Below are positions 21,852 to 57,554 of a DNA stretch of 64,000 nucleotides, one piece after another. Both the position numbers and the translations under genes were made by a program. Below the pieces are notes generated by a model, which did not search any database, was not told where the DNA came from, and saw only the letters and a program-made list of their open reading frames with translations. Location: positions 1,968-65,967 of the forward strand of contig SVJY01000005.1 in the NCBI GenBank assembly GCA_015068765.1, read 5' to 3'. The DNA comes from Oscillospiraceae bacterium (GTDB taxonomy: Bacteria; Bacillota; Clostridia; UMGS1883; UMGS1540). The stretch's first letter is position 1. The number at the start of each line of letters is the position of its first letter.

Positions 21852-21862
21852 GAGAAATACAA

Positions 21863-22444
21863 ATGAAGAAACTTATATTAATATTAGGAAATGGTCTAAC
21901 AATGGATTTACTTTCTAATTTAGATACTGAAAAACCCAACATTGATTTAATTAATTTGTTTTCTAAAGGAGATACTGTTATATGGCCAGATGGTAACCAA
22001 GAAAGAGGTTTTTTGTCATATAAGCATTGCCCATCGCTGTGGAATTTAGGAGCACGCCCTAATATGGCAGATTTAAAGAAAGTGTATGCAGCAATTGATG
22101 AACAGACAGCACTCTCCGAGCTTGAAAACTTTGATGAAAAATGGGGTAATAAATATCCTAAGATAGCAATATCCTGGCGTGACAACTGGGCAAATTTATC
22201 GACATATTTTAAATATCCCCAAGAGGTTAGAACGCTAATTTACACTACGAATGCCATAGAAGGCTTTAATCGTCAGCTTCGTAAGGTTACCAAAAACAAA
22301 GGTGTATTTCCTACGGATGAGAGCCTTCTCAAGATGCTTTATCTTGCGATGATGGATATTACCAAGAAATGGACAGGCAAACGCTGTGAATGGGGACAAA
22401 TTCATTCACAGCTTGAACTTTTCTTTGCGGACAGATTATGCTGA
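21863..22444 (+). pseudogene. Chimeric ORF: about 68 aa of an unrelated AT-rich gene (GNG-motif N-terminus, DUF4917/SIR2-like?) fused in frame to the C-terminal ~125 aa of an IS256-family transposase
   Basis: From about aa 69 onward, ADLKKVYAAIDEQTALSELENFDEKWGNKYPKIAISWRDNWANLSTYFKYPQEVRTLIYTTNAIEGFNRQLRKVTKNKGVFPTDESLLKMLYLAMMDITKKW matches the conserved IS256/Mutator transposase C-terminus. The base composition changes at the junction. Confidence 0.7.
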
Positions 22445-22855: not shown

Positions 22856-23836
22856 CTATTTAAATTCAAAAAGCTTCACATCAATAATTTCATGAAATTT
22901 TTCTTTGGAACCATTCATTTTCTGATACAGAATCGAAGATGCCTTATCTGCCCAACCGCCATCTGTCATACCGACACTGATACTTACACCGGGACAGTAT
23001 AAATGTGCATTGATAGCATCAAAACCCACAACAGGTACCGTTGATACAATGGGATGTGATTTAAATCTTGAAATAATCTCAAAAGCAATCAAGTCAGAAA
23101 ATGCAATAATTGAATCGAACGGAATCTTATCCGTCAGAATTTTTTGCAACACCGATTCCACATAATTGGATTTGGGTTCCATTTCAATAAACATAGCTTC
23201 GGAAACATGTATCCCTTTTTCCTCGAATGCTTTTTGTATGCCTTGAAACCTGTTTCCGCTCGACTCAATATATTTGTATGCGCCGATATACAGCGGATTT
23301 TTACAGCCCTGCCCCGCAAGATACTCTCCCAGAATGTAGCCGGACTTAAAATCATCACCGCAAACATAATCCGTATCTATCTCCGAAAAAAATCTACCAA
23401 TCAGAACATACGGAATATGTAACCCATTTAAAAACTCTATATTTTTTGTACTGTGTTGCGATGGGCAAAGTAAAATCCCGTCAACACTCTTACTACATGC
23501 GGTTATAATGGCATCCCGTTCCGTCTCTTCGCTTTCATTTGTATTTAAAATCAGCACCGTATACTGCATAAGACGCATCTTGTCTTCAATCAGTTTAATC
23601 TGATATGCAATATGCGGATTGGAAATATCGGGTACAATTGCCGCAATTGTTTTTGACTTTCCCGAGCGTAGGGATGTTGCAGATGCGTTTGGAATATATC
23701 CTAATTTTTTCGCGGTTTTTAAAACTTTCTCTCTGGTTTCCTCCGATATGTCGTCTCTTCCGTTCATTACGTGAGAAACCGTTCCTATTGTTACGTTCAG
23801 CTCTTGAGCGATATCTTTTAATGTTACTTTTTTCAT
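22856..23836 (-). CDS. LacI/GalR-family transcriptional repressor
   Basis: 326 aa. N-terminal HTH (VTLKDIAQELNVTIGTVSHVMNGRDDISEETREKVLKTAKKLGYIPN) plus a periplasmic-binding-protein-like sugar-binding core. Confidence 0.9.
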   Translation of the reverse strand: MKKVTLKDIAQELNVTIGTVSHVMNGRDDISEETREKVLKTAKKLGYIPNASATSLRSGKSKTIAAIVPDISNPHIAYQIKLIEDKMRLMQYTVLILNTNESEETERDAIITACSKSVDGILLCPSQHSTKNIEFLNGLHIPYVLIGRFFSEIDTDYVCGDDFKSGYILGEYLAGQGCKNPLYIGAYKYIESSGNRFQGIQKAFEEKGIHVSEAMFIEMEPKSNYVESVLQKILTDKIPFDSIIAFSDLIAFEIISRFKSHPIVSTVPVVGFDAINAHLYCPGVSISVGMTDGGWADKASSILYQKMNGSKEKFHEIIDVKLFEFK

Positions 23837-23880: not shown

Positions 23881-23906
23881 AATTTGTCAATAACTATTGA
23901 CAAATT
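23881..23906. promoter_or_regulatory. 26-bp palindrome carrying two back-to-back TTGACA -35 boxes for divergent promoters (LacI gene and the MPE-GH2 operon)
   Basis: AATTTGTCAATA-AC-TATTGACAAATT. On the plus strand TTGACA is followed by 17 nt and then TACTAT. On the minus strand TTGACA is followed by 18 nt and then TATAAT, upstream of the LacI start. Confidence 0.55.
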
Positions 23907-23920
23907 CTTGATTTTATGCT

Positions 23921-23936
23921 ACTATAACGATATAGT
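23921..23936. promoter_or_regulatory. LacI-type operator candidate (16-bp palindrome centred on CG) overlapping the -10/+1 of the plus-strand promoter
   Basis: ACTATAA-CG-ATATAGT. The 18-mer TACTATAACGATATAGTG recurs in the same promoter context at 46483-46501 on the minus strand. A second palindrome, TGACAA-T-TTGTCA, lies at 23936-23948. Confidence 0.55.
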
Positions 23937-23965
23937 GACAATTTGTCAGAAAGGATGCACTTCAT

Positions 23966-24889
23966 ATGGGAAAGGATATTCTGTTCGGAATTTGTGCGGA
24001 TGCACACCAATCCATACAAAACGATATTTCAGGCAGGATTCGTGCTTTTGTAGAAGAAGCTTCAAAGCGAAAGGCAGATTTTATCATTCAGCTTGGTGAT
24101 TTTGTGTTGCCGGATGCCTCCGGTGAAAAAGCCCTCGCGGCGTGGAATAAATTCAGCGGCCCCCGTTATCATGTGCTTGGGAATCACGATACGGAAATGG
24201 GCGGCAAGGAAGCTGTAATGTCCTTTCAGGGACAGAAAGAAAAATATTACAGCTTTGATGCCGGGGATTATCATTTTATTGTTCTCGATACAAATTACTT
24301 TAAATACGGCGACGATTTTATAGATTATAAAGATCTCAATTATCGTGCTTCCGAATCCTTCAACTGTTACATTCCTCCTTTTCAGCTAAAATGGCTTGCC
24401 GAGGATTTGGATAAAACAGATAAACGTTGTTTTATTTTTACCCATGCTGCACTTTGCGTTGGTGACTGGGTGGTTTATAATTTACATGAATTTATGGACG
24501 TTTTATGGCTCGCCAACCAAAAAGCAGGCTTTAATAAGGTAACGATGTGTTTTTCAGGGCATGACCACGCCGATGCCTATCTTTTCAAAGGCGGTATCCA
24601 TTATGTTCTGGTAAACAGCTTAAGTCATAAATATATCGGCCCGAAATACACACAGCATTCTTCTCATGCGACGACGGTGGAAAAGGAATACGGAAAGCTG
24701 GATTATGTTGTACCGTATAAAGATCCTCTGTATGCATTTGTAAGGCTGAAGGAAAACGGACTGATTCAGATTATGGGAAAACAGTCGGAATATGTAGGGA
24801 ACAGTCCTATGGAATTACACTGGGAGCATTATGCTTCTCCCCAAATTTCGTATAGGGAGGTATGGATGAATGGCATTGGCGAATTATGA
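23966..24889 (+). CDS. Calcineurin-like metallophosphoesterase
   Basis: 307 aa. Motifs GICADAH, QLGDFV, GNHD and GHDH. Paralogous to the ORF at 52473-53555 (shared YYSFD.G..HF.VLD.NY). Confidence 0.85.
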   Translation: MGKDILFGICADAHQSIQNDISGRIRAFVEEASKRKADFIIQLGDFVLPDASGEKALAAWNKFSGPRYHVLGNHDTEMGGKEAVMSFQGQKEKYYSFDAGDYHFIVLDTNYFKYGDDFIDYKDLNYRASESFNCYIPPFQLKWLAEDLDKTDKRCFIFTHAALCVGDWVVYNLHEFMDVLWLANQKAGFNKVTMCFSGHDHADAYLFKGGIHYVLVNSLSHKYIGPKYTQHSSHATTVEKEYGKLDYVVPYKDPLYAFVRLKENGLIQIMGKQSEYVGNSPMELHWEHYASPQISYREVWMNGIGEL

Positions 24890-27095
24890 TATGATACTCC
24901 GCGACGGTTGGAAATTTCATCACGGAGAGCTTGACAGAGTCAGCGAAATGCCCATTAACTTATCCCATGCCACCAGTAAAGCCGGCGGTGCCCTGAAAGA
25001 ACTGGATATGTTCAAAGAAGAAACCGTATGGCAGTCTGTGCGCGTACCCCATGACTGGGCAACGGAGCTGCCTCTCGATAAAGAGGCATATGCCGCAGGC
25101 GGTTTTAAAGAAAGAGGAACGGGATGGTACTTTATTTCTTTTCGTTTGCCCGAAGATGAAATCGGCGATGCCAGCCTTATATTTGACGGCGTACTGGGAA
25201 AATGCGAAGTGTTTGTAAACGGTACTGTGGCAGGACGGAATTTCAGCGGCTATAACCGCTTCAGCTTTGATGTGGGCGATTATCTGCTGGAAAACGAGGA
25301 AAATTCCATCGCCGTTTATGTCGATGCAAGAAGATGGGAGGGCTGGTGGTATGAAGGTGCCGGTCTTTACAGAAATGTTTACTTACAATTTCGTGGCAAA
25401 TCCCATTTAGATATGGAAAAATGCTTTGTCAGAAGCGAAAAAAAGGACGGCCGATGGATGGTAGAAGCCGATTTAATCGGCATCGGCACGGATGAGACCA
25501 TGCAGTATCGCCTTTGTCTTACGGACAAAAAAGGAAACTGCATAGGAACGAAAACCGCTTCAGCAAAGGGAGAAACCATTGCCATGCCGGTGGAAAATCC
25601 GACGCTCTGGTCGCCGGAAACGCCGGAATTATATACCCTGACTTGTACCCTTGAAAAGGATGACGAAATCCTGGATACCTTTAAAGCAGGGGTGGGCTTT
25701 CGCCTAATAGAATGGAAAGCGGACGAGGGTATGTTTTTGAACGGAAAGCGGTATCCCGTAAAGGGAATCTGCTGTCATCAGGATCATGCAGGCGTAGGCG
25801 CGGCAGTACCGGATGCACTCATGGAATACCGCATTTCCATATTGAAATCGCTCGGCATCAACGCCTACCGCTGTGCCCATCACGCTCCGACAGAAACACT
25901 TTTAGAAATATGTGACCGTCAGGGAATGCTTGTGATGGTTGAAAACCGAAATTTTGCGGTATCAGAAGATGTGCTGCGCCAGCTTTCTTCTCTTGTTTAT
26001 GTTTCCAGAAACCATCCCAGCGTATTTTTATACAGTTTATTTAATGAAGAGCCATGGCAAAGAGAAGACCGCGGCAGGCGCATTGCCGAAAAAATGCGGG
26101 CGCACATTTTAAAGCTGGATGATACCCGTCCCATCACCGGTGCGCAAAACGGCGGGCTTCTGGAAAAATCCAATGCTTCGGACGCACTGGACGTCATCGG
26201 TGCAAACTATCATCTTGCCGAGTATGATTCTTCCCACGCACGCACGCCGAACAAGGTTATGATCGGAACAGAAAACTGCCCGACCTATGCTACAAGAGGT
26301 GTGCATGCCACCGACAAGGATAAACAAATTTTTGCAAACTACAGCGAGGACTGGGGGGACTTTTCGGAGTCGCTCACCGAAACGATGCACACGGCATTTT
26401 ATAAGCCATACGTGGCAGGCTGTTTTGCATGGAGCGGTTTTGATTACAGAGGGGAGCCGACGCCTTATGGCTGGCCAAGCGTGCTGTCCCATTGGGGCTT
26501 TACCGATTACTGCGGATTTCCAAAGGACCACGCCTATCTTCTTGCCTCATGGTACAGAGAAGAATTGTTTGTGCACCTCTTCCCCCATTGGAATCATACG
26601 CCGGGCGAGGTGGTGCGCGTATGCGCCTATACCAACGCCGAAAAGGCGGAGCTTTTTGTAAACGACTGCTCGCAGGGCGAAATTGCCGTAACCGACTGTC
26701 GTGCCGAATGGCGCGTGCCCTTTACACCGGGTACGATTCGGGTGTGCGCCGCCCGAAACGGACAGACCGCACGTGACGAAGTGAAAACGGCAGGCGCGCC
26801 TGCTTGTATCCGTATTTTGAATACAACACCGGACAAAGCGGATGCAGATGCGCACATTGTGAATGTGTGTATAACGGATGCGGACGGGACGGTAGTACCC
26901 GACTGCAATAAAACGGTATCCTTTGCCGTACCCGCCGGTACCCTTTTAGGGGTTGGCAACGGCGATCCGAACGGACACCTCAATGAAAAAGCAAACAGCA
27001 TCCCGCTTTTCAACGGCTTTGCGCAGCTTATCACCACCGCCGATGCCGTAACGGTAAGCACCGAAGGACTGCCGGACGCACATATCCGATTATAG
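24870..27095 (+). CDS. Glycoside hydrolase family 2 (beta-galactosidase/beta-mannosidase/glucuronidase-type)
   Basis: 741 aa, cytoplasmic. Sugar-binding jelly roll (WYFISF...LIFDGVLGKCEVFVNG), an Ig-like linker (LWSPETPELYTL), and a TIM barrel with RCAHHAP and the acid/base motif NHPSVFLYSLFNEEP. GGGAGG RBS 9 nt upstream. Overlaps the preceding gene by 20 nt. Confidence 0.9.
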   Translation: MALANYDMILRDGWKFHHGELDRVSEMPINLSHATSKAGGALKELDMFKEETVWQSVRVPHDWATELPLDKEAYAAGGFKERGTGWYFISFRLPEDEIGDASLIFDGVLGKCEVFVNGTVAGRNFSGYNRFSFDVGDYLLENEENSIAVYVDARRWEGWWYEGAGLYRNVYLQFRGKSHLDMEKCFVRSEKKDGRWMVEADLIGIGTDETMQYRLCLTDKKGNCIGTKTASAKGETIAMPVENPTLWSPETPELYTLTCTLEKDDEILDTFKAGVGFRLIEWKADEGMFLNGKRYPVKGICCHQDHAGVGAAVPDALMEYRISILKSLGINAYRCAHHAPTETLLEICDRQGMLVMVENRNFAVSEDVLRQLSSLVYVSRNHPSVFLYSLFNEEPWQREDRGRRIAEKMRAHILKLDDTRPITGAQNGGLLEKSNASDALDVIGANYHLAEYDSSHARTPNKVMIGTENCPTYATRGVHATDKDKQIFANYSEDWGDFSESLTETMHTAFYKPYVAGCFAWSGFDYRGEPTPYGWPSVLSHWGFTDYCGFPKDHAYLLASWYREELFVHLFPHWNHTPGEVVRVCAYTNAEKAELFVNDCSQGEIAVTDCRAEWRVPFTPGTIRVCAARNGQTARDEVKTAGAPACIRILNTTPDKADADAHIVNVCITDADGTVVPDCNKTVSFAVPAGTLLGVGNGDPNGHLNEKANSIPLFNGFAQLITTADAVTVSTEGLPDAHIRL

Positions 27096-27115
27096 GAAGG
27101 ACAGGATGTGAGTTT

Positions 27116-27844
27116 ATGAAAATTATTGCCGACACGCATACGCACACAATTATGTCCGGACACGCACATTCCACGCTGCTTGAAAACATTCGTGCGGCAA
27201 AAAGCCGCGACCTTTCGTTTTTATGCGTAACAGACCACACAGGCATCATGCCGTGTGCACCGGACAATACATATTTTTCCTGTATGCGCGCCACACTTCC
27301 CGATATATATGAGGGTGTATATTTGCTTCGCGGCTGTGAAGCAAATATACTGGACGAAACAGGACGGCTGGATGTGCCGGAAGGTGTACTGCAAAAGCTT
27401 GAATGGGTTATTGCTTCCATCCACGGTATTTTAACAAAGCCGATGGATGAGATACGGCACACACAGCTCTGGTGCCGGATTGCGGAAAATCCCCATGTGG
27501 ATGTTATCGGGCATTGCGGGGAGGAGGCTTTCCGCTTTGATTATGAGGAGGGCATCCGTGCTTTTGCGGCACATAAAAAAATTGTGGAAATCAATGCGTA
27601 TTCCTTCCGGAGCCGCCCCACAAGCCGCAAAAACTGTATGGAAATTGCGCGGCTTTGCCAAAAGCACGGCGTTCCGCTCGTTATATCCTCTGATGCACAT
27701 TTTGCAGGTGGTGTCGGCGACGTGCAGACTGCGATTGACCATCTTCAGGAGGCAGGCATTGAGGAGCGCAGCATATTAAATGTAAATACAAACCGTTTTG
27801 CACAATATGTAAGTGCAATGACAGGAAGAACTTTTAATGTATAA
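27116..27844 (+). CDS. PHP-family phosphatase (YcdX-like)
   Basis: 242 aa. MKIIADTHTHTIMSGHAHSTL...CVTDH parallels the N-terminus of E. coli YcdX. Confidence 0.85.
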   Translation: MKIIADTHTHTIMSGHAHSTLLENIRAAKSRDLSFLCVTDHTGIMPCAPDNTYFSCMRATLPDIYEGVYLLRGCEANILDETGRLDVPEGVLQKLEWVIASIHGILTKPMDEIRHTQLWCRIAENPHVDVIGHCGEEAFRFDYEEGIRAFAAHKKIVEINAYSFRSRPTSRKNCMEIARLCQKHGVPLVISSDAHFAGGVGDVQTAIDHLQEAGIEERSILNVNTNRFAQYVSAMTGRTFNV

Positions 27845-27849
27845 GGAGA

Positions 27850-29259
27850 ATGAATATGAAAAAAGAAAAACTGACCTTTGCCTTATTTTTCGGCAACCGC
27901 GGCTTCTTTCCGGGAGAACTGATTGCCGCGGCACGCGAAGATATGCAAAGGGTACTTACGGAAAACGGCTACGACTACATCGTCATGGATGAAGCCGCCA
28001 CACGCTACGGTGCTGTGGAAACCATTGCAGAAGGGAAATTATACCACGATTTTCTGGAAGCACACAAAGGGGAATTTGACGGCGTAATCCTTTCCCTCCC
28101 GAATTTCGGGGACGAAAACGGTGCCACGGTTGCACTTCGGGATGCCGGCGTTCCCATTTTGGTGCAGGCATATCCGGACGAAGCCGGAAAAATGGACTTC
28201 GCCCATCGGCGCGATTCGCTTTGCGGCAAAATTGCCATGTGCAACGTACTTCGCCAATGCGGTATCGCCTATACTTTGACGAAAGATGCTACCACTAACC
28301 CAAACAGCGAAGCCTTTAAAAAAGATCTTGCCTATTTTGCCGCTATATGCCGCGTTGTGCGAAGACTTAAGCATTTCAACATCGGTGCCATAGGCGCAAG
28401 AACAACTGCTTTTAAAACGGTACGTGTGGATGAAATTGCCATGCAGCGTGCCGGCATTAACATTGAAACCATTGATTTAAGTCTTGTTTTTGATTTAATG
28501 GACAATGCAGATGCCGACTTACTGGCAGAAAAGAAAAAATACTATGCATCCATTACAGATTTCGGCACATACCCGCCGGAAAAACTGGACAACATCGCAA
28601 GGCTCGGCGTTGCTTTGGATAAGCTGATTGCGGACTATAATCTACAGGCTGTCGGCGTTCGTTGCTGGGAGGAATTCCAAAAGCGGTATGCCATTGCCCC
28701 ATGCCTTGTACTGAGTGACCTTAACGAACGTGGCATTCCGGCGGCATGTGAACTGGATGTAAACAATGCGGTTATGATGTACGCCCTGCAGGAGGCATCC
28801 GGCGCACCCGTAATGCTTCTGGACGTAAACAATAACTACAAGGATGACCCGAGCAAAACCATTCTCTTCCATTGCGCGGCAATCCCCCGCTCCTTCTATG
28901 CTTCCGAAACAAAAATCGGCGAGCATCTTATGTTTAAAAAATCCTTTGGCGAGGGAAGCGGCGTCGGTATTGTAAACGGCGAAATTTGTACGGGCGAAGT
29001 AACGCTCGGCAGCTTTAAGACAGAGGACGGTGTGCTCCACGCCTTTGCGGCTGATGCAACCCTTACAGAGGATGCAATTGAAGACGCATTTTTCGGATGC
29101 GGTATTGTGGCAGAGGCAGAATGTATGCCGAATCTTCTGACACATATGCTTGAAAACGGCTACCGCCACCATGTGGCAATTGCAAAAGGACAATGGGCGA
29201 AGGCAGTCGGCGAAGCCATGGATAAATATCTCGGCTATGTAATAAAAGTAATTCAATAA
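27850..29259 (+). CDS. L-fucose/L-arabinose isomerase-family sugar isomerase (short ~470-aa form)
   Basis: 469 aa. The N-terminal FGNRGFFPGELI..., the later NFGDENG, and the overall length fit the FucI-like family (COG2407 type). Confidence 0.75.
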   Translation: MNMKKEKLTFALFFGNRGFFPGELIAAAREDMQRVLTENGYDYIVMDEAATRYGAVETIAEGKLYHDFLEAHKGEFDGVILSLPNFGDENGATVALRDAGVPILVQAYPDEAGKMDFAHRRDSLCGKIAMCNVLRQCGIAYTLTKDATTNPNSEAFKKDLAYFAAICRVVRRLKHFNIGAIGARTTAFKTVRVDEIAMQRAGINIETIDLSLVFDLMDNADADLLAEKKKYYASITDFGTYPPEKLDNIARLGVALDKLIADYNLQAVGVRCWEEFQKRYAIAPCLVLSDLNERGIPAACELDVNNAVMMYALQEASGAPVMLLDVNNNYKDDPSKTILFHCAAIPRSFYASETKIGEHLMFKKSFGEGSGVGIVNGEICTGEVTLGSFKTEDGVLHAFAADATLTEDAIEDAFFGCGIVAEAECMPNLLTHMLENGYRHHVAIAKGQWAKAVGEAMDKYLGYVIKVIQ

Positions 29260-29274
29260 TAGGAGGAAAAAGAA

Positions 29275-30159
29275 ATGAACAAGCTTGGCATTTTTATGAA
29301 CTTCTGGGAGAAAAACTGGGACGCAGACCACGCAAAATACATTAAAAAGGCGGCAGAAATCGGGTACGACATTCTTGAATTTCAGGCACAGCCCCTGCTT
29401 GAAATGTCGGACGAAAAGCTGAAATTCTTAAAAGCACTTGCGGATGAAGTCGGCATTGAGCTTACGTATAGCCTCGGTCTTGACCCGAATTACGATGTGT
29501 CTTCTCCGGACGAAGCCGTGCGCCTTGGTGGCGTGGATTACCTCCAGAGAATTATTCGCCAGATTCAAAAAATGGACGGCACACTTCTGTCCGGCGTAAG
29601 CTACGCAGGTTGGGGGACTCCAAACTATGTTTTAAATGATAAAAGACCGCTTCTTGAAAATAGCCTCAAAAGCATGCGCGAAATTATCAAAGTCGCCGAG
29701 GAATGCGGCGTTACATACTGCGTGGAGGCCGTAAACCGTTTTGAAGGTTGCCTCATCAACACAGCGCAGGAAGCCCTAGACTATGCGGCAGAAATCGACA
29801 GCCCGAATATCGGCGTACTGCTCGATACATACCATATGAACATCGAAGAAAATTCTATCGGCGATGCCATTCGCCTGGTCGGCAATAAGCTCACAAGCTT
29901 CCATACCGGCGAAAATAACCGTACCGCCCCCGGCAAAGGGCATCTTAACTGGGATGAAATTTTCGGGGCACTTTCCGATATCGGCTATAAAAACAGAATT
30001 GTTTGTGAGCCGTTTGTTATGCAGGGTGGTGAGGTTGGCAGAGATATCCATGTTTTCCGTGACCTTATCGACAATCCTTCGGAAGCCAGAATTGACGAAG
30101 AAGCCAAATATATTTTAAACTTCGAAAAGGAAATGCTGAAAAAGTGGAATTTGGCATAA
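29275..30159 (+). CDS. Ketose 3-epimerase-like protein (D-psicose/D-tagatose 3-epimerase family, xylose-isomerase-like TIM barrel)
   Basis: 294 aa. LGIFMNFWEKNWDADHAKYIKKAAEIGYDILEF closely parallels the DPEase/DTEase N-terminus (GIYYAYWEQEWEADYKYYIEKVAKLGFDILEI, recalled). Also has CVEAVNRFE and LLDTYHMNIEE metal ligands. Confidence 0.8.
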   Translation: MNKLGIFMNFWEKNWDADHAKYIKKAAEIGYDILEFQAQPLLEMSDEKLKFLKALADEVGIELTYSLGLDPNYDVSSPDEAVRLGGVDYLQRIIRQIQKMDGTLLSGVSYAGWGTPNYVLNDKRPLLENSLKSMREIIKVAEECGVTYCVEAVNRFEGCLINTAQEALDYAAEIDSPNIGVLLDTYHMNIEENSIGDAIRLVGNKLTSFHTGENNRTAPGKGHLNWDEIFGALSDIGYKNRIVCEPFVMQGGEVGRDIHVFRDLIDNPSEARIDEEAKYILNFEKEMLKKWNLA

Positions 30160-30194
30160 CCCTTTTCTACCCTCGTTAAAAAGGAGAGGTTTTT

Positions 30195-31679
30195 ATGCAA
30201 GCTGAATTATATATAAATAAAAATTTTGTTATCGGCGATATTGACAACCGCATTTACGGTTCTTTTATCGAGCAATTCGGCAGAGCCGTATACGGCGGCA
30301 TCTACGAGCCAGACCATGAAACAGCGGACGAAATGGGCTTTCGGCAGGATGTTCTGGAAAAGGTGCGCAAGCTGCACGTACCCATTGTGCGGTATCCGGG
30401 TGGGAATATTCTGTCCGCCTATAACTGGGAGGACGGAACAGGCGACAAGGCCAAAAGACCGCAAAAGCTGGACCTTGCATGGAACACCATTGAACCGAAC
30501 ACGGTGGGAATTGATGAATTTCAGGCATGGGCAAAAAAGGCAGGCACAACCGTTATGATGTCTGTAAATCTCGGCACACGTGGTGTGGAAGAAGCAAGAA
30601 ATTGTCTTGAATACTGCAACGGGGATACGCCCACGTATTATGCCGATATGCGCCGTAAAAACGGTTTTGAAGCACCCTTTGATTTTAAATTATGGTGTCT
30701 CGGAAACGAGATGGGCGGCACGGCGCAAATGTGCCGGAAAACGCCGGAGGAATACGGCCGCCTTGCGGCAGAAACAGGAAAGGTTATGAAGCGGCTTGAT
30801 CCTTCCATCGAGCTTATCGCCTGCGGCAGTTCTCATCGCAACATGCCAAGATTCGGCGAATGGGAGCTTGTGGTTTTGTCGCACACCTACAGCATTGTTG
30901 ATTATCTTTCCATTCATCAGTATTATGACGCAGGCGCCAATGCATTACCTGACCTTTTGGCAAAAACGGTGGATATGGATGATTATATCAAATCGGTTTC
31001 TGCCATGTGTGATACAATTAAGGCGATAAAAAAATCAGATAAAACCATGTACCTTTCCTTTGACGAATGGAATGTATTTCCGAAGGACTTAAGCCAAAAC
31101 GGTGACGGAAAACGGGAATGCGGTTCCCCCCGTTTTGAAGGTACATATACTTTCGGAGATGCGCTGATGGTGGGCTGTATGATGATAACATTGCAGAAAA
31201 ACAGCGACAGGGTAAAAATAGCCTGTCTTGCACAGCTTGTTAATGCCATTGCACCCATTATGACAAATCCGGGCGGTAAGGCGTGGCTGCAGACCATTTA
31301 TTACCCGTTTCTCTATGCATCCTTGTATGGCAGAGGTACTGCCTTGCGGACAGAAATCAAGTGTGATGCATATTCTACGGAAAAGCATCAAAATGTGCCT
31401 TATTTGGAAAGTGCTGTCATTCATAATGCGGAAAATCATGAGCTTATTTTGTTTGCAGTCAACCGCTGTATGACCGATGGGATGGAGCTTATACCCCTTT
31501 TTGAAAATTTCGGAGACTCTACGCTGATAGAACATATTGAATTATATGCAGAAAATCCGGAAGAAAAAAACACCGCCGAAAAGGAATCTGTCAGGGCGCA
31601 AAATGTTCCCATCGGTGAAAAAATCATTCTGAAAAAACATTCGTGGAACATGCTGCGTTTTTCGTATACAGAATGTTGA
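30195..31679 (+). CDS. abfA: GH51 alpha-L-arabinofuranosidase
   Basis: 494 aa, cytoplasmic. IYGSFIEQFGRAVYGGIYEP, VRYPGGNILSAYNWEDG, the acid/base motif WCLGNEMGG and the nucleophile motif LSFDEWNV. Confidence 0.9.
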   Translation: MQAELYINKNFVIGDIDNRIYGSFIEQFGRAVYGGIYEPDHETADEMGFRQDVLEKVRKLHVPIVRYPGGNILSAYNWEDGTGDKAKRPQKLDLAWNTIEPNTVGIDEFQAWAKKAGTTVMMSVNLGTRGVEEARNCLEYCNGDTPTYYADMRRKNGFEAPFDFKLWCLGNEMGGTAQMCRKTPEEYGRLAAETGKVMKRLDPSIELIACGSSHRNMPRFGEWELVVLSHTYSIVDYLSIHQYYDAGANALPDLLAKTVDMDDYIKSVSAMCDTIKAIKKSDKTMYLSFDEWNVFPKDLSQNGDGKRECGSPRFEGTYTFGDALMVGCMMITLQKNSDRVKIACLAQLVNAIAPIMTNPGGKAWLQTIYYPFLYASLYGRGTALRTEIKCDAYSTEKHQNVPYLESAVIHNAENHELILFAVNRCMTDGMELIPLFENFGDSTLIEHIELYAENPEEKNTAEKESVRAQNVPIGEKIILKKHSWNMLRFSYTEC

Positions 31680-31698
31680 CTTTAGAAAGGAAGACAAA

Positions 31699-32331
31699 AT
31701 GAAATCAAGACGAATCAATCATCTCTTGTTTGACTATGCCCGAACCATTGTGGAGCATCCCTTGGACGGCGCAGGTAAGCAAATTTTACGGAACACCGGT
31801 CTTACAGATGAAACAGATATTGAATTTTTTCAAAAGGCTGCCTTTTCCGTTGACAAGTACCTGAATCATCTGGATGAAGGCATTATGGAAAGAGATACTT
31901 ATAAACGCCTTCTGAAGGAAGAACTGCCGCTACACTTACACGGGTATGTCGAAGAAGCAGTCGATTATCATATGTGTGTCCTTCCGGCACTTCCCGGCAT
32001 GCTTGAACTTTTGAAAACGCTGAAAGAGGACGGCTTTAAGCTGTACCTTGTTTCCAACTTAGACCTTTATCATGCAAGACAAATGCACGAAATCGAAGCG
32101 GCTCCCTTTATGGACGATATGATTTTTTCTGCAGATATTGGTATACGGAAGCCTTATCCCGGCTTTTTTGATGCTGCCTGCAGGCAGTTTGGCGTTTCGC
32201 CTTCGGAGTGCCTTTTTATAGACGATCTGGAGGAAAACGTACAGGGTGCACGGGATTTTGGTATAAAAAGCTATGTTTTCCACGGCGATCCACAGGAACT
32301 CGAACGCTTCATTTATTCGGAAGCGATATAA
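31699..32331 (+). CDS. HAD-superfamily hydrolase with atypical motif I
   Basis: 210 aa. Motif I reads LLFDYARTIV (D-x-A instead of D-x-D). Motif IV is FIDDLEENV. Confidence 0.75.
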   Translation: MKSRRINHLLFDYARTIVEHPLDGAGKQILRNTGLTDETDIEFFQKAAFSVDKYLNHLDEGIMERDTYKRLLKEELPLHLHGYVEEAVDYHMCVLPALPGMLELLKTLKEDGFKLYLVSNLDLYHARQMHEIEAAPFMDDMIFSADIGIRKPYPGFFDAACRQFGVSPSECLFIDDLEENVQGARDFGIKSYVFHGDPQELERFIYSEAI

Positions 32332-32373
32332 ACTGCGATACGCATTTCAGTACAAATAAAGGAGAAGATTTTT

Positions 32374-35307
32374 ATGAAAAAAGGACTCACCCTGCTGCTC
32401 ACAATTGTATTGCTCTTTACAATGTCAGCGGTAAACACCACCGCCGTATCGTTCACCGATACGGAAGGAACAAAATGCGAAACCGCCGTCGGTGTTTTGG
32501 CGGCACTCGGCATTGTAGAAGGTAAATCGGAAGGCGTCTACGAGCCGAACAGCTTGCTCACAAGAGCAGAAATGGCTACAATTATTCTCCGTGCCATGGA
32601 TATGGACGGCGTTACTTTTGGCTGGAACATCTTTACGGACGTTCCCGCAAGTCACTGGGCGTATGCCAATATTGCAGCGGCGTATCAGCTGGGCATTATA
32701 AACGGCACAAGTGCCACTACCTTCGAACCGGATAAAAGCGTTACATACGAGCAGGCTGTAAAAATGGTTGTGGCTGCACTCGGTTACACTGTACAGGCAG
32801 ACGTTTTGGGTGGCTACCCCTCCGGATATCTTTCCAAGGCGGCACAGCTTGACCTTTTAAGAGGTGTAACACAAGGCGGCGAAATGACACGTGGCAATAT
32901 GGCAATTCTGCTCTATAACGCACTGGATACAGAACTATTTTTGCAGTACACCTTCGGCGAAGGTGCCTATGATTTTGAAAGCACCGAAACGAAAACCCTG
33001 CTTTCCTACTACCTGAAGGTAGAAAAGTGGATCGGCGAAATCACCGCCACCCCCATGGCACAGTTTGGGACCGCTTTGGAAGGCCGCAAGCTTTTGGGCG
33101 ATGAGGTTAAAGTGGGTGCCCAGATTATGAAAAAGGGCGAGACAAATGCACAGGATATGCTCGGCATCCGCAGTGACATCTATGCAAAGCGTGAGGATGG
33201 AAGCGAAATTCCTGTCATCTTGGCAATCGTACCCCGTGCAAGTGTAGAAATCATGGATGTCAGAGCACAGGATATTCAGTCCAAAACCGACACAGCAGAA
33301 TTTGTATATCTGGATGCGGCAGGTAAAGAGCAAGAGGTCAGTATTGCCGGTGCGACCTTTATCTACAACGGCCGCCAAGAAACCATGACAAACAACCTGA
33401 TCGTGCCTGAAATCGGAACGGTACGTCTTGTGGCTGAAGGGGGAAACGTGGACCTTGTTATGGTTTGGGAATATGAAAACCATATTGTGGAAAATGTTCT
33501 CTCCACAGAGAATAAGGTTTATTTTGCGGGAAGCGGTACGCCGTCTACGATCATTGATCTTAGTGACAACACCCTTCCCACTGTGATGACCGATGCGAAC
33601 GGAAATGGCGTTACCCTCGACAGCCTTATGCAATGGGATGTGCTTTCGATTGCCGAGAGCCTGCCGTCTAACACAAGCCGCGTTCGCCGCATTTATCGTT
33701 CCAATTCGCAGATTACCGGTGAAATCACCGAAATTATCAGCGGCACAGACGAGGTTGTCATCGGCGAAGATGTCTATTCCGTTGCGGCACCCCTAACGAT
33801 CAGTGACGTAAAGCTTGGGCAGAATGCAGCATATTACCTTGACTTTACAGGTGCTATCGCGGCAATGGATACAAGCTATGATACAAGCCGCATTTACGGA
33901 TGGCTCCAGAATGCAGAAAAGACAAAGGGCTTAAATGGTAAGCCGCAGCTGAAAATCTATACCCAAACCGGCGAATGGAAGGTATTCGATCTTGAGGAAA
34001 CCGTTCGCTTTAACGGACAGGGACGCGACAGTGCTTCCCTTCTGGATGCGACACGTGCAGAGGCGAATATCTGGGGGGATGACGTTGCACCTTCTTTTGT
34101 CGCAATAAACGGGACGGTTGTGCCACAGCTTATTTCCTATAAGACAAACGAGGCAGGTCTGATTACGGAAATTGAAACGGCAGTGAATAAGACCTCTCTT
34201 CTTAAAAAAGATGAAGAAAAATTCGGAGACGAATTCAGCATGGACATCTACCAAAATGATGTAAAACAGGTCCGTGCCTTCAACGGTGAAAAAGAAGGCT
34301 ATATGGATGATGCTTCCTATGTAGACGGTGGTCTGCAGTACCTGGACGGCGTGCTATTTAGTCGTGTGTATGCGAACAAAAACACCATTCTCTTTAAAAT
34401 CCCCAAAGACCCTGCCGTTGAAAGAGGATATAGTGTAGGAGCCGCGAACGTGCAGGGGCTGGCGATGATGGAATATCGCTCTTGGGGCTGTCTCTCCTAC
34501 TATGATATTGATGACAGCAATTTCTGCAAGGTTATGGTTATGCGTAATGACCTTATGTATGGAGATTCCGAAGAGGATACAACGGTGATAACCGCCTATC
34601 CTACCGCCTCTGTACCGGCTGCCATCATTACGAAAATCAGCACCGTTTTAAGCGAGGATGGCGAACCCATGCAAGTACTTAAGCTGGTGAACTGGAGTGG
34701 ACAGGAAATCAACGCTATCCTTACAGATTCTTTAGAGTATTGCTTGTATAAGGCTGCAAATGCAAATTTAACGGAAGACCTTGCTTGGTATACGGAAAAA
34801 GACGAAGACGGAACGAAAATACGCGGTGACTATAAGTATATTACAAATAAACATCAATACCGTAAAGAACTCTTCATGGATCCGGCGGATCTGACTGTCG
34901 GTGATGTCATCCAGTATTCGGTTGACAGTGAAAACAAGCTGACCATGGTATCGGTTGCGCACCGTGCAAACTATTCCGGCAATGTGGAATTTTCCGTAAG
35001 CTCGGGTGAAATTCTGTTACAGGGCACACGTGATAATTTCTATCGTGGCGGCAATTTCTCACTTTGCGGTACCGTAATCAAGGTTCTGAAATCGGGTATT
35101 TTGGTATCGACAAACATTGGCGATATCTTTGGTGACGATTCCCAGTTGGATGCCACCCGTATGCTGCCCACAATCGGTAATTTCTTTATCTGGAACAGTG
35201 AAAAACAGGCCCTGACCCAGTGTACAGCTACAGACTTCCTTCCGGAAGACTATATCTGGGCTTTCTGGGACACATCCGACCAGGAAATGGTTATTGCTTA
35301 CCGCTAA
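32374..35307 (+). CDS. Secreted cell-wall-anchored protein: signal peptide, N-terminal triple SLH domain and ~750-aa body of unknown function (paralog S1)
   Basis: 977 aa. Signal peptide MKKGLTLLLTIVLLFTMSAVNTTA. SLH repeats (FTDTEG...TRAEMATIILRAM; FTDVPASHWAYANIAAAYQLGIINGTS...TYEQAVKMVVAAL; ...TRGNMAILLYNAL). Paralog of 54798-57554. Confidence 0.85.
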   Translation: MKKGLTLLLTIVLLFTMSAVNTTAVSFTDTEGTKCETAVGVLAALGIVEGKSEGVYEPNSLLTRAEMATIILRAMDMDGVTFGWNIFTDVPASHWAYANIAAAYQLGIINGTSATTFEPDKSVTYEQAVKMVVAALGYTVQADVLGGYPSGYLSKAAQLDLLRGVTQGGEMTRGNMAILLYNALDTELFLQYTFGEGAYDFESTETKTLLSYYLKVEKWIGEITATPMAQFGTALEGRKLLGDEVKVGAQIMKKGETNAQDMLGIRSDIYAKREDGSEIPVILAIVPRASVEIMDVRAQDIQSKTDTAEFVYLDAAGKEQEVSIAGATFIYNGRQETMTNNLIVPEIGTVRLVAEGGNVDLVMVWEYENHIVENVLSTENKVYFAGSGTPSTIIDLSDNTLPTVMTDANGNGVTLDSLMQWDVLSIAESLPSNTSRVRRIYRSNSQITGEITEIISGTDEVVIGEDVYSVAAPLTISDVKLGQNAAYYLDFTGAIAAMDTSYDTSRIYGWLQNAEKTKGLNGKPQLKIYTQTGEWKVFDLEETVRFNGQGRDSASLLDATRAEANIWGDDVAPSFVAINGTVVPQLISYKTNEAGLITEIETAVNKTSLLKKDEEKFGDEFSMDIYQNDVKQVRAFNGEKEGYMDDASYVDGGLQYLDGVLFSRVYANKNTILFKIPKDPAVERGYSVGAANVQGLAMMEYRSWGCLSYYDIDDSNFCKVMVMRNDLMYGDSEEDTTVITAYPTASVPAAIITKISTVLSEDGEPMQVLKLVNWSGQEINAILTDSLEYCLYKAANANLTEDLAWYTEKDEDGTKIRGDYKYITNKHQYRKELFMDPADLTVGDVIQYSVDSENKLTMVSVAHRANYSGNVEFSVSSGEILLQGTRDNFYRGGNFSLCGTVIKVLKSGILVSTNIGDIFGDDSQLDATRMLPTIGNFFIWNSEKQALTQCTATDFLPEDYIWAFWDTSDQEMVIAYR

Positions 35308-35359: not shown

Positions 35360-35396
35360 CTCGCCAGCTTGCTGACAAAGCCGGCAAGCTGGCGAG
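35360..35396 (+). terminator. Terminator hairpin after the S1 gene
   Basis: CTCGCCAGCTTGC-N11-GCAAGCTGGCGAG, a 13-bp perfect stem, 53 nt after the stop at 35307. Confidence 0.55.
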
Positions 35397-35421
35397 ATAC
35401 TGAGAAACGACATAAAAAGCA

Positions 35422-35460
35422 GATGCTGTAGCATAATGAGATTCATTTTGCTACAGCATC
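35422..35460 (-). terminator. Terminator hairpin after the GH20 gene
   Basis: GATGCTGTAGC-N17-GCTACAGCATC. On the minus strand it is followed by a T-rich run (complement of the AAAAAGC run at 35414-35420). Confidence 0.5.
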
Positions 35461-35480
35461 TTGACGTTAATACTTCATAA

Positions 35481-46648: not shown

Positions 46649-46921
46649 TCACCGCATAAACAGGAAAAATAGACTTCTTGAAATACGGTCAAGCCTGTAA
46701 ACAAGAACTTTAGAAATCTTGCCTTGTTCAATTTTCCGCATCATATTTTGAAAACCATCACGATTTACAATACCACCTGAAAAACCGTCGTCAACGAAAG
46801 TAAGTATTTTTTCGCCTCGTTCAGCAGGCTTTATCATTGCCCTGCAATATTCGAGCTGTGTTTCGCAGGAAATGCTGTTTTCACGCTCTATGGATTTTCT
46901 TGCATAAAGTGCTATAGCCAT
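46649..46921 (-). pseudogene. Truncated serine recombinase (resolvase-domain N-terminus only)
   Basis: 90 aa. MAIALYARKSIERENSISCETQLEYC...FVDDGFSGG...RDGFQNMM...VLVYRLDRISRS is the catalytic resolvase domain. The ORF then ends after 7 unrelated residues. Large serine recombinases are 450-700 aa. Confidence 0.75.
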
Positions 46922-53555: not shown

Positions 53556-53560
53556 TTTTA

Positions 53561-53610
53561 CCGCAACAAAAGTCCGGCAGACAACACTTCATCCCGTTAT
53601 CAGCCGGACT
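53561..53610 (-). terminator. Weak terminator-like hairpin after the DegT gene
   Basis: AGTCCGGC-N24-GCCGGACT followed on the minus strand by TTTGTTG. The long loop lowers confidence. Confidence 0.3.
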
Positions 53611-53625
53611 TTAAAAATCAATTAC

Positions 53626-54797: not shown

Positions 54798-57554
54798 TTA
54801 TCTATAAACAATTGTCATGAGCGGCGTATAGGTTCTTGCCATAAATAATATTTTATCCCCAATCTCCACGTCTTCCTTGGAGATGGCCTCCACGCTGTTC
54901 TTTTGTTTATCAAACAAATATATCAGATTTGTATAATACATAGTGGATTTTACGCTTATATCCGATGCCTTATCCAGCTGTGCATCATACAGATTTACAT
55001 TTGCCATGAATCCGTATTTTGTGAAATCACAGACTTCGCCGTAGGACATAAGTCTATCACTGTAATTTTTAAGAACTGTGGTGGGCTTTATGGTCCCAAG
55101 CAGGGAGTCTTTTTCGTAATTTGCCGGATAATGACCCCGGAACAGAACACAGAGCTGCACTGCCCAATTATTGGAATCCACGACATAGTATATCACGTCG
55201 CCCGGTTCTATATCCTGTATGCCTATCCTTGCCGGTCTTACGCCGCCTACACAAACCGGATCCTTACTACGATCTGTAGCTGCTTCACCGAACAGAACCT
55301 CAAAATCGTTGTCAGCCGTTACTGTCAGGCTACCGCCGCCCTCCGGCCGGAGAACAAGTTTCGATATGCTCCCCCCTGTGCTTTCATCCAGAGCGGTGGA
55401 TACACTTTCCACAAGAGCCAGTTTTGTCCCCGATATCATATACTCGGTGACGTCTCTTTCGTCCCTTCTGTCCCAGACTAGTACGGAAACCACCTCATCC
55501 TCTCCAATATCATAAAGTGCGATATCGTCATAGATTTCGGTGCCGTCCGTTCCGTGTTTCATCGAATCCCAGCTTTTTGTGTAGTAATCCTTTTCTTCAC
55601 CGGAACCCGGCAGAACAAAGATAACCGTTTCACTCCGGACGAGCCAGTTTCTTCCGAAGGCTTTCATATTGCCACCGATGAAGATTGTGTACTCATCCGT
55701 TCCGTTGTCCAGCTTGTAGCCCGGCTTAATGTATGCATCAAGGCTGAAATCCTCTACTCTGTTTGGACTATTAAAATTATGTCTATAGTCTGTTGCTGTT
55801 TCAACAGAAGAAATCTTTTCGCCGTTTTTCTCATATTTGATGAGCTGCTCGAGGATTACGCCACCGCTTTTCAGCGGACTTGTATCTGCCAGAATTTCTG
55901 CCGCATCCCCATCATGTCCGTTTAGCGTCACCTTATCCATACAGTCCAGTACTTCAACCTTACCCTCATGGGTGAAAAGCCGAAGTTGCGGACGGGAATC
56001 AAGTCCCTTTGTCATGGCGGCATTCAAAAGCCAAGCATAATATGCCGTCGCGGCAGTATCGGTATTCACCGCCGCAACATGACCGAACATGTCAAGGGAA
56101 AATGCCGCCTCTGTTCCAAGTCGAGGCATCTCAAAATCGGGTATCTCTATCAGGCTTTTTGCCACAGGATACTCTGTTTCTCCTATCGTGACAGAATCCA
56201 CAGAAATTTCCGAAAGCGTTCCCGTTACAATGTTGCTTGTTAAAACTACTTTTCTATATTTTCCGTTTGCACTTTCTGCCAAGGAAAGTACATCCCATTC
56301 CTTGCATGCGCTTATATCTGCCGCCGTTCCGTCAGAAAGTGTAAACACAGTGGGAATCGTATTATTGAATGAAATACTTCTCTCCGGCGTGCGGTTTTCA
56401 AGCACGGCAACCGTCATCCTAGAACTTGCAACCCGTTCAACAACGTAGTTTTCATAGCTTTCCACGATAACATATTCTACGCTTCCGCCTTTAGAAATCA
56501 GCTTCACGCTTCCCGTTTCCGGCTGAAGCGCCGCCGCAGAGGGCGTCCGGGGCTCGCCGTTTACAATCACCTGTGCGCCTTGGATGGAGATTCTCTCTGT
56601 TTTCGCATCGCGCTCAAAGCAGAACGTGTTGCCGGTTGTCTCCGCTAAAATTTCGTGGCTATGCACCGTTTCGACCGTGGACTTAGAAGTTAAAGCCAGC
56701 ATGGAAAGGCTACCGTCCGCCTCTTCCTTTACGTAAGCCACAATATGTTCACCGAGTCTTTTGTCTGCATCTGTCGCACCGATGGCTATCGTTTGCCCGC
56801 TTAGCACAACCTCATCCGTGCGAAGGCTTCTTCCCGGTGCGGCAATTTCCTGTGCATAGGTTGCCGTAACCACGCCTTCCATAAGCTTTATGTGCAGATA
56901 ATATGAAAGCGGCGTACGAAGTGCGTCCTCTTCAAATGTATAAGAATCATCACCGTAGCTTGTAGGCTTCAGCATTTCCGTATCCAGTGCATTGTAGAGA
57001 AGCATCGACATATCACCGCGGCATAATTCTCCGCCGCCGATTTCGTCCACGCCATTTAAAATTCCCAGCTGCACGGCACAGCTTACGTAGCCTGCCGGAT
57101 AACCGCCTGCAGCTTCCGCCTTTACGGTATATCCAAGAAGATTTATGACCATTTTGATGGCTTGCTCTCCCGTCACCGGTGCATCCGGCATAAACTCCGT
57201 TTCACTTACGCCATGTATAATGCCGAGACTATACGCTGTCGTAACATAGTAGTACGCCCAATGCTCGTACGGGACATCCGCAAAGCAGTCCCGTTCCTCC
57301 GCCCAGTCCTCGATTCCCATCATGCGGACGATCATTGCAACCATCTCCGCACGGGTAACATTTCCGGGTGCGTCAAATTCTCCGTTTTCCCGTCCTTCTA
57401 CGATACCAAGATTATAAAGCACCGAAACGGCCTTTTCATATTTTGTGCCTGCAACATCCTCAACGGTTGCTGCAAAGGGAGAAATACTGCTGACGGTGGT
57501 GCAGAAAAGCACCACTGCCAAAAGTATGCTCCAAAAAATCTTGTTTATTCTCAT
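54798..57554 (-). CDS. Secreted cell-wall-anchored protein S2: signal peptide, N-terminal triple SLH and ~750-aa unknown body (paralog of S1)
   Basis: The track ORF runs to 57713, overlapping P3. I start it at MRINKIFWSILLAVVLFCTTV (ATG ending at 57554), which gives a proper signal peptide with a GGGGA RBS. SLH repeats follow. The body aligns with S1 (LLYNALDTE..., LSYYL..., C-terminal ...VYR). Confidence 0.8.
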   Translation of the reverse strand: MRINKIFWSILLAVVLFCTTVSSISPFAATVEDVAGTKYEKAVSVLYNLGIVEGRENGEFDAPGNVTRAEMVAMIVRMMGIEDWAEERDCFADVPYEHWAYYYVTTAYSLGIIHGVSETEFMPDAPVTGEQAIKMVINLLGYTVKAEAAGGYPAGYVSCAVQLGILNGVDEIGGGELCRGDMSMLLYNALDTEMLKPTSYGDDSYTFEEDALRTPLSYYLHIKLMEGVVTATYAQEIAAPGRSLRTDEVVLSGQTIAIGATDADKRLGEHIVAYVKEEADGSLSMLALTSKSTVETVHSHEILAETTGNTFCFERDAKTERISIQGAQVIVNGEPRTPSAAALQPETGSVKLISKGGSVEYVIVESYENYVVERVASSRMTVAVLENRTPERSISFNNTIPTVFTLSDGTAADISACKEWDVLSLAESANGKYRKVVLTSNIVTGTLSEISVDSVTIGETEYPVAKSLIEIPDFEMPRLGTEAAFSLDMFGHVAAVNTDTAATAYYAWLLNAAMTKGLDSRPQLRLFTHEGKVEVLDCMDKVTLNGHDGDAAEILADTSPLKSGGVILEQLIKYEKNGEKISSVETATDYRHNFNSPNRVEDFSLDAYIKPGYKLDNGTDEYTIFIGGNMKAFGRNWLVRSETVIFVLPGSGEEKDYYTKSWDSMKHGTDGTEIYDDIALYDIGEDEVVSVLVWDRRDERDVTEYMISGTKLALVESVSTALDESTGGSISKLVLRPEGGGSLTVTADNDFEVLFGEAATDRSKDPVCVGGVRPARIGIQDIEPGDVIYYVVDSNNWAVQLCVLFRGHYPANYEKDSLLGTIKPTTVLKNYSDRLMSYGEVCDFTKYGFMANVNLYDAQLDKASDISVKSTMYYTNLIYLFDKQKNSVEAISKEDVEIGDKILFMARTYTPLMTIVYR

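Follow-up and report, generated by a model that had tools for sequence, protein, structure and literature searches.

The gene S1 (32374..35307, + strand) was analysed in a stretch of 64,000 nucleotides from an Oscillospiraceae bacterium (GenBank assembly GCA_015068765.1, contig SVJY01000005.1, positions 1,968 to 65,967; hereafter referred to as the window). S1 is an ATG-to-stop open reading frame (ORF) of 977 amino acids plus the stop codon, and its product is a genuine Sec-secreted protein with S-layer homology (SLH) repeats as its predicted wall anchor and without enzyme-like features. We give an even chance to a reading in which S1 would be a surface protein of the S-layer type that lacks catalytic activity and was recruited to partner wall-anchored glycosidases, namely the P proteins that are encoded near S1 and near its paralogue S2 in the same window. 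The long body that follows the anchor belongs to an undescribed family that has neither a Pfam model nor a solved structure nor a functional name; SLH-anchored surface proteins that aid glycan breakdown are already known.

Pairing of S genes with P genes

The four P genes of the window are arranged in two pairs. P1 and P2 (37415-41047 and 41120-44734, both − strand) are convergent with S1 and lie 2 kb away, and P3 and P4 (57661-60363 and 60379-63837, both − strand) lie directly upstream of S2 on the same strand, with a gap of 106 nt between the P3 stop and the S2 start (57554). P1-P4 are one family (27-71% identity) with carbohydrate-binding modules (CBMs) of the CBM4/22 type followed by a clan GH-A barrel (GH: glycoside hydrolase). 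A profile built from 31 P sequences matched CBM22/CBM4 (3e-15), GH158 (1.3e-12), GH2 β-glucuronidase barrels (4e-11), and GH5 (6e-7), and two features are invariant throughout the family, a D-E-P motif (E428 in the numbering of P3) and a second glutamate (E586). SLH repeats are found at or near the C-terminus of P1-P3, with no SLH match in P4. From these SLH repeats, the profile matches, and the invariant acidic residues, the P proteins are taken to be wall-anchored clan GH-A hydrolases with CBM4/22-type modules. Their catalytic core is covered by no Pfam model and may represent an unmodelled glycoside hydrolase family; no dockerin was found in P1-P4. The first-pass annotation, which was made without database searches, had set N-terminal anchors in S1 and S2 against C-terminal anchors in P1-P3; the polarity was as stated for S1, S2, P2, and P3, whereas in P1 the SLH region occupies residues 842-1003 of 1210 and is followed by about 200 further residues. 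P4 is 71% identical to P3 over the first ~710 residues, and its C-terminal ~450 residues match no family.

S2 (54798..57554, − strand; 918 amino acids when read from MRINKIF) is flanked by the genes of P3 and of a DegT-type aminotransferase; the mechanically called ORF reaches 57713, but its added part runs into the 3' end of the gene upstream. S1 and S2 are collinear over their full length (32% identity, E 5e-126 with BLASTP), and the common segments that had been pointed out by eye (LLYNALDTE, LSYYL, and the C-terminal VIAYR / TIVYR) were all found. S2 is identical to the sequence P0083, which matches the S body profile described below at E 4.8e-202 (profile positions 2-735). Directly downstream of S2, after a 14-nt gap, there follow genes for an aminotransferase (DegT/DnrJ/EryC1-type) and a metallophosphoesterase and then one for a GH38 α-mannosidase (52473-54783, − strand); the mixing of an amino-sugar-type transaminase with surface-protein and catabolic genes is unusual.

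ORFs were called and clustered in 94 sequences (93 loci and the window), in which the S family comprised 80 genes. The commonest neighbour family by far was P, with 49 genes in 24 loci, so that the predicted co-occurrence of S-type and P-type genes in other genomes was indeed found. When the presence of P near S was counted by clade, after the removal of near-identical copies, P was directly adjacent on the same strand in all nine cases of the S2-like clade (885-923 amino acids), and in several of these loci the gap between S and P was 5-35 nt. In the S1-like clade (967-1,034 amino acids), P was found within ~10 kb in 8 of 22 cases (adjacent in 3), and in the distant members of the family in none of 42. 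Direct neighbours of the distant members are often other secreted or SLH-anchored proteins, among them GH10+CBM4_9+CBM9, GH30, and GH88 proteins, SLH giants, and a heparinase-like lyase that has a discoidin domain. Further S1-like copies were found in other glycan contexts (GH42-like/DUF4832, a CBM4_9 protein, MalK), and stand-alone S1-like copies had upstream regions of 567-736 nt, while others followed UDP-GlcNAc 2-epimerase. In locus L007 (1226-9718), an S1-like homologue follows a 2,830-amino-acid protein without a Pfam match and a dockerin-containing protein, a context that hints at a link to cellulosome-type components in that metagenome-assembled genome (MAG).

S bodies were also found fused to P. 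Among the 150 best clusters of the body-profile search, at least 11 were 1,659-1,815 amino acids long with the S body at the C-terminus, lengths and positions that are consistent with a P–S fusion, and two were verified. In P0153, a complete P enzyme (27% identity to P3 over 895 amino acids, E 3e-83) precedes the S body, which lies at residues 964-1659; in P0141, the P profile matched residues 30-884 with an hhalign probability of 100%, followed by SLH repeats and the S body at 1081-1815. The P0141 ORF is identical and intact in two independent samples (L094, 8001-13448; L095, 8001-13448), where P-like and CBM4_9 genes follow it. Other relatives of S1 carry add-ons of the carbohydrate-binding type, namely Golvesin_C (3 of 8 tested), F5/8-type C, CBM4_9, and CHB_HEX_C. 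The P–S fusions and these add-ons are a further, independent line of evidence for joint action of S bodies with P enzymes and glycans. The suggestion of the first-pass annotation that S is a dedicated partner of the P arrays thus stood in part: adjacency in the S2-like clade and the fusions speak for it, but the family as a whole is not specific to P, as the S1-like and distant counts and the other neighbours among carbohydrate-active enzymes (CAZymes) indicate.

Secretion and predicted anchoring of S1

The start codon of S1 is preceded at a distance of 9 nt by a ribosome-binding site AGGAG (32360..32364, + strand; direct sequence reading). The Sec signal peptide, MKKGLTLLLTIVLLFTMSAVNTTA, was assigned by direct reading to approximately residues 1-24 (32374..32445) with a putative cleavage site; it holds no lipobox cysteine, and the pattern …SAASF[A/T]DT is kept in S1 homologues. 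In the structure model of S1 there is a helix at residues 2-19 and a low predicted local distance difference test (pLDDT) score at residues 17-25. A protein identical to S1 (P0001) is present in public MAGs, where its sole name is 'S-layer homology domain-containing protein [Ruminococcaceae bacterium]'.

Three SLH repeats, the predicted cell-wall anchor, occupy residues 26-185 (32449..32928) and were identified by Pfam (E 6.5e-24 in S1 and 8.8e-18 in S2), by PDB sequence search (7e-12 against the SLH region of Sap), and with Foldseek (probability 1.00 and template modelling score (TM-score) on the target of 0.70-0.80 over ~165 residues against the SLH trimers of Sap and SpaA). The modelled region is helical and superposes on these trimers. 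In an alignment of 62 homologues, T63, R64, A65, and E66 of the motif LTRAE (residues 62-66) are nearly invariant and R173 is invariant; S1 thus has three tandem repeats in a pseudo-trimeric three-prong fold with a TRAE-type motif, as expected for SLH (PF00395). The ligand of SLH trimers is pyruvylated secondary cell-wall polymer, as established with Sap and SpaA. Among the genes scanned in the 64-kb window, none for a csaB-type pyruvyltransferase was seen. The architecture that had been read from the letters for both S1 and S2, a signal peptide and three N-terminal SLH repeats followed by a long body, was borne out by sequence, Pfam, and the model.

A reading of S1 as an OmpM-type protein of diderm bacteria (SLH with an outer-membrane β-barrel) was rejected, as no porin fold was found and the OmpM structures 8bym and 8bys were matched through the SLH region alone.

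Fold and conservation of the body

The body of S1 (residues 186-977, ~790 amino acids; 32929..35304, + strand) matches no known family. With Pfam at E ≤ 0.1, the bodies of S1 and S2 gave only sub-threshold noise (Amidase_6, Toprim_3), and there was no match to cohesin in either protein; the NCBIfam match was limited to the SLH part of one model, with nothing in the body. A search of PDB sequences with phmmer and with a 62-sequence profile returned only the SLH region, besides insignificant matches at E ≥ 0.085; the profile matched the SLH regions of Sap, SbsB, and SpaA, and the body parts of these proteins were unmatched.

Structure prediction was performed with AlphaFold2 on S1 with 62 homologues and, in a second run, on the body alone (mean pLDDT 86.0 and 84.4, respectively). 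Residues 186-977 were modelled as all-β, in ~11 short, barrel-sized segments of 50-110 residues each, with no large domain able to form a cleft. Foldseek was used for fold searches, in which the full-length model was compared with 350,542 chains of PDB and with the viral set BFVD, and the body-only model with PDB. Credible matches of the body were limited to tandem barrels of the OB (oligonucleotide/oligosaccharide-binding), cold-shock, EF-P (elongation factor P), or SSB (single-stranded DNA-binding) type, with probability up to 1.0 and TM-score on the target of 0.25-0.39; as modelled, the likeness is real at the level of a single small barrel and has no bearing on function. Long 'global' alignments (EMC1, DDB1, arylsulfate sulfotransferase, and propeller proteins of the pre-ribosome) were rejected as noise (TM ≤ 0.11). 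Folds of glycoside hydrolases, lyases, CBMs, cohesins, porins, or S-layer assembly domains were not among the Foldseek matches to the S1 body in PDB or BFVD, and no known CBM family was recognised by Pfam or by fold. The assembly domains of Sap and SbsB, both in the searched library, showed no similarity to the S1 body by profile or by fold. The first-pass annotation had recognised no catalytic or binding motif in the body, and none was assigned by structure prediction, fold search, or family search; the domain assignments that would have contradicted it (GH, polysaccharide lyase, or generic S-layer domain) were looked for by sequence and fold with a negative outcome. Internal repetition in the body has nearly vanished, and a weak repeat was detected between residues 801-866 and 921-977 (hhalign probability 85%); since just this one pair of segments, the best, reached that value, a recent tandem repeat as the origin of the body was rejected.

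The anchor is far more conserved than the body: mean pairwise identity is 58% in SLH and falls to 34% over residues 186-560 and 28% over residues 561-977. Conserved positions of the body are mostly glycine, tyrosine, and hydrophobic residues; the conserved polar residues are few (N332, D422, E453, D490, Q585, D711, D844, R864, and D959) and are scattered by sequence over different proposed barrel segments, and N332 is the sole residue that remains invariant once distant members are included. No cluster of conserved Glu, His, Lys, or Arg was seen in the body alignments. Because of this pattern, of the greater conservation of the anchor, and of the lack of a Pfam, NCBIfam, or PDB profile match, the body of S1 appears, as far as sequence conservation can tell, to be non-catalytic.

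Size and distribution of the family

An exhaustive search with a profile of the body only (SLH removed) yielded 7,920 clusters (50% identity) with E ≤ 1e-3, of which 6,216 passed E ≤ 1e-30. The clusters are mostly 850-1,050 amino acids long, and the body begins near residue 190. A word-indexed search returned ~100 full-length S homologues, all from uncultured Ruminococcaceae or Clostridia and named merely 'SLH domain-containing protein'. Species-representative genomes contained 281 matching loci, every one in a MAG from gut, rumen, or digester, with at least 7-8 matching loci, some of them partial, in single MAGs. From the profile search and the locus counts, the S body represents a very large unnamed family and is not a curiosity of the window. 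Members of the family have Sec signal peptides, few cysteines, and an acidic body (isoelectric point (pI) 4.4-4.6). Two S-family genes were observed in tandem or on one short contig at L050 (342-3149 and 3454-6075) and L017 (18-1214 and 5527-8430), which points to local duplication within the family. In the literature searched, we found no description of the S body family or of its chain of β-barrels, of its gene pairing and fusions with P, or of SLH-anchored GH158-like enzymes.

The S1 operon and its control region

A block of eight genes on one strand, separated by short gaps (23966-35307), ends with S1. The seven genes upstream of S1 in the same operon (23966..32331, + strand; Pfam) encode, in order, a metallophosphoesterase, a GH2 protein, a PHP protein, a fucose-isomerase-like protein, a xylose-isomerase-like TIM barrel, a GH51-type arabinofuranosidase, and a HAD phosphatase, and the gap between the HAD gene and the S1 start is 42 nt. 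A gene for a LacI-family regulator (22856..23836, − strand; Pfam LacI and Peripla_BP_1) is divergent from the operon, and the region between them contains two consensus promoters. Across the divergent −35 boxes lies a perfect 12+12 palindrome, AATTTGTCAATA/TATTGACAAATT (23881-23906), and just downstream of the + strand promoter lies a second candidate operator, TGACAATTTGTCA (23936-23948); both contain the half-site TTGTCA/TGACAA, and the motif is absent from the rest of the window. A match to the operator pattern is not statistically exceptional by itself, as at least one was found in 23 of 100 shuffles. The palindromes are plausible operators, and LacI control of the S1 operon is likewise plausible from the sequence.

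Downstream of S1, a perfect hairpin with a 13-bp stem (35360..35396, + strand), not followed by a T-run, is a putative transcript end, and a further hairpin with 19-nt arms (35421..35461) lies between the convergent S1 and GH20 genes, with a T-run following on the minus strand. The operon is reproduced gene for gene in another MAG (locus L090), where the S protein is 71% identical and is followed by an aldose epimerase gene. The same-strand block, the divergent LacI gene, the palindromes, the hairpins, and the gene order of L090 are all consistent with the earlier proposal that S1 is the last gene of a LacI-controlled operon, with the control as the predicted part of it.

Other genes of the window

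A secreted protein of ~520-550 amino acids without SLH, carrying CBM4_9 in most copies, recurs beside the P arrays (ORF family F9 and relatives; in the window at 44748-46337, − strand, and elsewhere at L005 19539-21122 and L009 16823-18430, by ORF clustering) and looks like a third conserved component of the modules. In total, more than 10 glycoside hydrolase genes were counted in the window, together with sugar kinases and isomerases; besides those described above, the glycan genes include GHL6/GH42-like, GH106-like, DUF6259, GH63-like, GH20, and GH38 members. No sugar transporter of the ABC (ATP-binding cassette), PTS (phosphotransferase system), or MFS (major facilitator superfamily) type and no solute-binding protein was found among the window ORFs scanned.

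The region just upstream of the LacI gene (21099-22444, + strand) contains a gene of the Fic/DOC family and a Mutator-family transposase fragment that retains only the last ~100 profile positions. An apparently truncated ORF of 90 amino acids (46649-46921, − strand), similar, as judged by inspection only, to the N-terminal catalytic part of a serine recombinase, sits in an otherwise gene-free gap of 1.2 kb between the P array and the next sugar-metabolism genes. The transposase fragment, the Fic/DOC gene, and the recombinase remnant suggest past rearrangement around the glycan modules.

Proposed role of S1 and alternatives

If S1 is a partner of wall-anchored glycosidases, it would be secreted through Sec and held on the Gram-positive wall by its N-terminal SLH trimer, presumably through binding to the wall polymer, and its acidic, non-catalytic body of ~790 residues would project from the anchor as a chain of ~11 OB/SH3-like β-barrels. 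The family is fast-evolving and has multiplied in this lineage, and some copies would have been recruited into glycan-utilisation modules. S1 would then be made together with LacI-regulated sugar-catabolic enzymes, beside the genes of P1 and P2, and S2 from the same transcription unit as P3 and P4; the proteins would serve as structural or binding partners of the SLH-anchored clan GH-A hydrolases, either spacing or holding the enzymes or retaining polymeric substrate. S1 is unlikely to cut glycans itself. The link between S2 and P is direct, through a common operon, whereas that between S1 and P is indirect, through co-regulation with sugar catabolism and the presence of P1 and P2 2 kb off on the other strand.

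Several observations weigh against such a partnership. S1 shares no operon with P, the closest P gene being on the opposite strand at the distance just given, and no P gene was present within the available flank for 14 of the 22 S1-like and all 42 distant genes; the surroundings of some S1-like copies are of the housekeeping kind, with alanyl-tRNA synthetase and GyrB on either side and ~570 nt of upstream region. The P proteins have SLH anchors of their own, so that no scaffold is needed for them to reach the wall, and a recognisable CBM or cohesin fold was not found in the S1 body. For the packing of the domains against one another in the S1 models, the predicted TM-score (pTM) is only 0.58-0.59. 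A bolder form of the proposal, which we hold to be somewhat unlikely, is a system of enzyme assembly at the surface, free of cohesin and dockerin, with the S body as its organising subunit: the wall-anchored chain would bind specifically to the P hydrolases (elsewhere, to other SLH-anchored CAZymes) and arrange them with captured glycan in the S-layer, and the P–S fusions would be the covalent version of the system. If true, such a system would serve thousands of uncultured Clostridia species of the gut and rumen.

S1 and S2 might instead be plain S-layer lattice proteins, with their nearness to P reflecting mere clustering of envelope genes. Their architecture is that of classical Firmicute S-layer proteins (an all-β body of ~750 amino acids preceded by a signal peptide and three SLH repeats at the N-terminus), the profile also matches the SLH of SbsB and Sap, the body is acidic and poor in cysteine, the family is huge and diverges fast with the anchor more conserved than the body, and stand-alone copies occur in housekeeping contexts with long upstream regions (567-736 nt) or after UDP-GlcNAc 2-epimerase. 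We nevertheless regard this as unlikely, since the eighth position in an inducible catabolic operon is atypical for the most abundant protein of a cell, single genomes hold at least 7-8 matching loci, the S2-like genes are invariably adjacent to P, several with very short gaps, the recurrent P–S fusions and CBM add-ons are not expected from chance clustering, and in its fold the body does not resemble the assembly domains of Sap or SbsB, even though both were in the searched library. The partner and lattice readings are compatible, in that a lattice-type subunit specialised to accommodate enzymes would fit both.

That the body is the catalytic module of an undescribed CAZyme family (hydrolase, lyase, or esterase) acting with P seems to us improbable. 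Appended CBMs classically mark an unknown catalytic module, so that the relatives with Golvesin_C, F5/8-type C, and CBM4_9 favour an enzyme over a non-catalytic partner; S genes also occur in loci packed with GH genes, and a fusion to a GH resembles multi-catalytic enzymes. The body has, on the other hand, no sequence or fold similarity to any enzyme, it is a string of 50-110-residue barrels in place of a large cleft-forming domain, it evolves faster than its anchor, and N332 alone is invariant family-wide, with no conserved Glu/His/Lys/Arg cluster seen. Still less probable in our view is an adhesin to plant particles, host mucus, or other microbes whose action does not depend on the neighbouring enzymes: a wall-anchored, surface-exposed stalk of repetitive β-domains and the discoidin-type add-ons of relatives would suit it, and SLH proteins of Caldicellulosiruptor have been implicated in attachment to cellulose, pectin, or xylan (PMC7142884), but the tight operon linkage and fusions with P and the co-transcription with cytoplasmic sugar-catabolic enzymes would be left unexplained. 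The adhesin overlaps in part with the substrate-capture version of the partner reading.

Should the pairing of S and P reflect a physical complex or a capture device, it would show how a large group of uncultured Gram-positive degraders of fibre and glycans organise their surface enzymes without cellulosomes or Sus-like systems. The S body occurs in more than 6,000 clusters (50% identity) and many times per genome, yet it is nameless, and one of its clades is always paired with P; with confident models and natural fusions in hand, the family is a well-defined target for structural, glycan-array, and interaction tests.

Comparison with known systems

Sap and EA1 of Bacillus anthracis, SbsB of Geobacillus, and SpaA of Paenibacillus alvei resemble S1 in having a signal peptide, an N-terminus of three SLH repeats that carry a TRAE-type motif, and a rapidly diverging, acidic all-β body of 600-800 amino acids. 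Sap and SbsB have Ig-like or β-sandwich assembly domains, to which the S1 body is unrelated in sequence and fold. Genes of the Sap/EA1/SbsB type are usually one or few, stand-alone, and strongly expressed, whereas S1 is operonic and belongs to a family with at least 7-8 loci per MAG, some partial; S genes differ from those of all four proteins in being operonic with glycan genes, inducible as judged from context, and sometimes fused to hydrolases, although some members are stand-alone. As judged from sequence and models, S1 is not demonstrably an S-layer protein of the Sap/SbsB type and appears to be a member of no CAZyme, CBM, or scaffoldin family.

The anchoring scaffoldins of cellulosomes (SdbA/OlpB of Acetivibrio thermocellus) combine SLH with cohesin modules, and their SLH is C-terminal. 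Like S1, they are wall-anchored, non-catalytic proteins of multiple β-domains that lie near secreted glycosidases, and both could organise enzymes; unlike them, S1 has no cohesin and carries its SLH at the N-terminus, and the P enzymes have no dockerin and are self-anchored by SLH. SusE and SusF of the polysaccharide utilisation loci of Bacteroidota also appear comparable, by analogy only, as non-catalytic, poorly conserved multi-β-domain proteins whose genes lie in substrate-induced glycan loci beside those of surface glycosidases; they differ from S1 in sequence, in domain fold, and in the anchor (an outer-membrane lipoprotein as opposed to SLH on a Gram-positive wall).

Caldicellulosiruptor's S-layer-associated proteins (such as Csac_0678 and Csac_2722) have been linked to polysaccharide attachment and occur several per genome beside SLH-anchored glycosidases (PMC7142884). 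S1 has no Pfam domain outside SLH through which homology of the bodies could be found, the Caldicellulosiruptor sequences not having been compared directly. As SLH proteins that work beside SLH-anchored glycosidases, they would by analogy be the nearest functional counterpart of S1.

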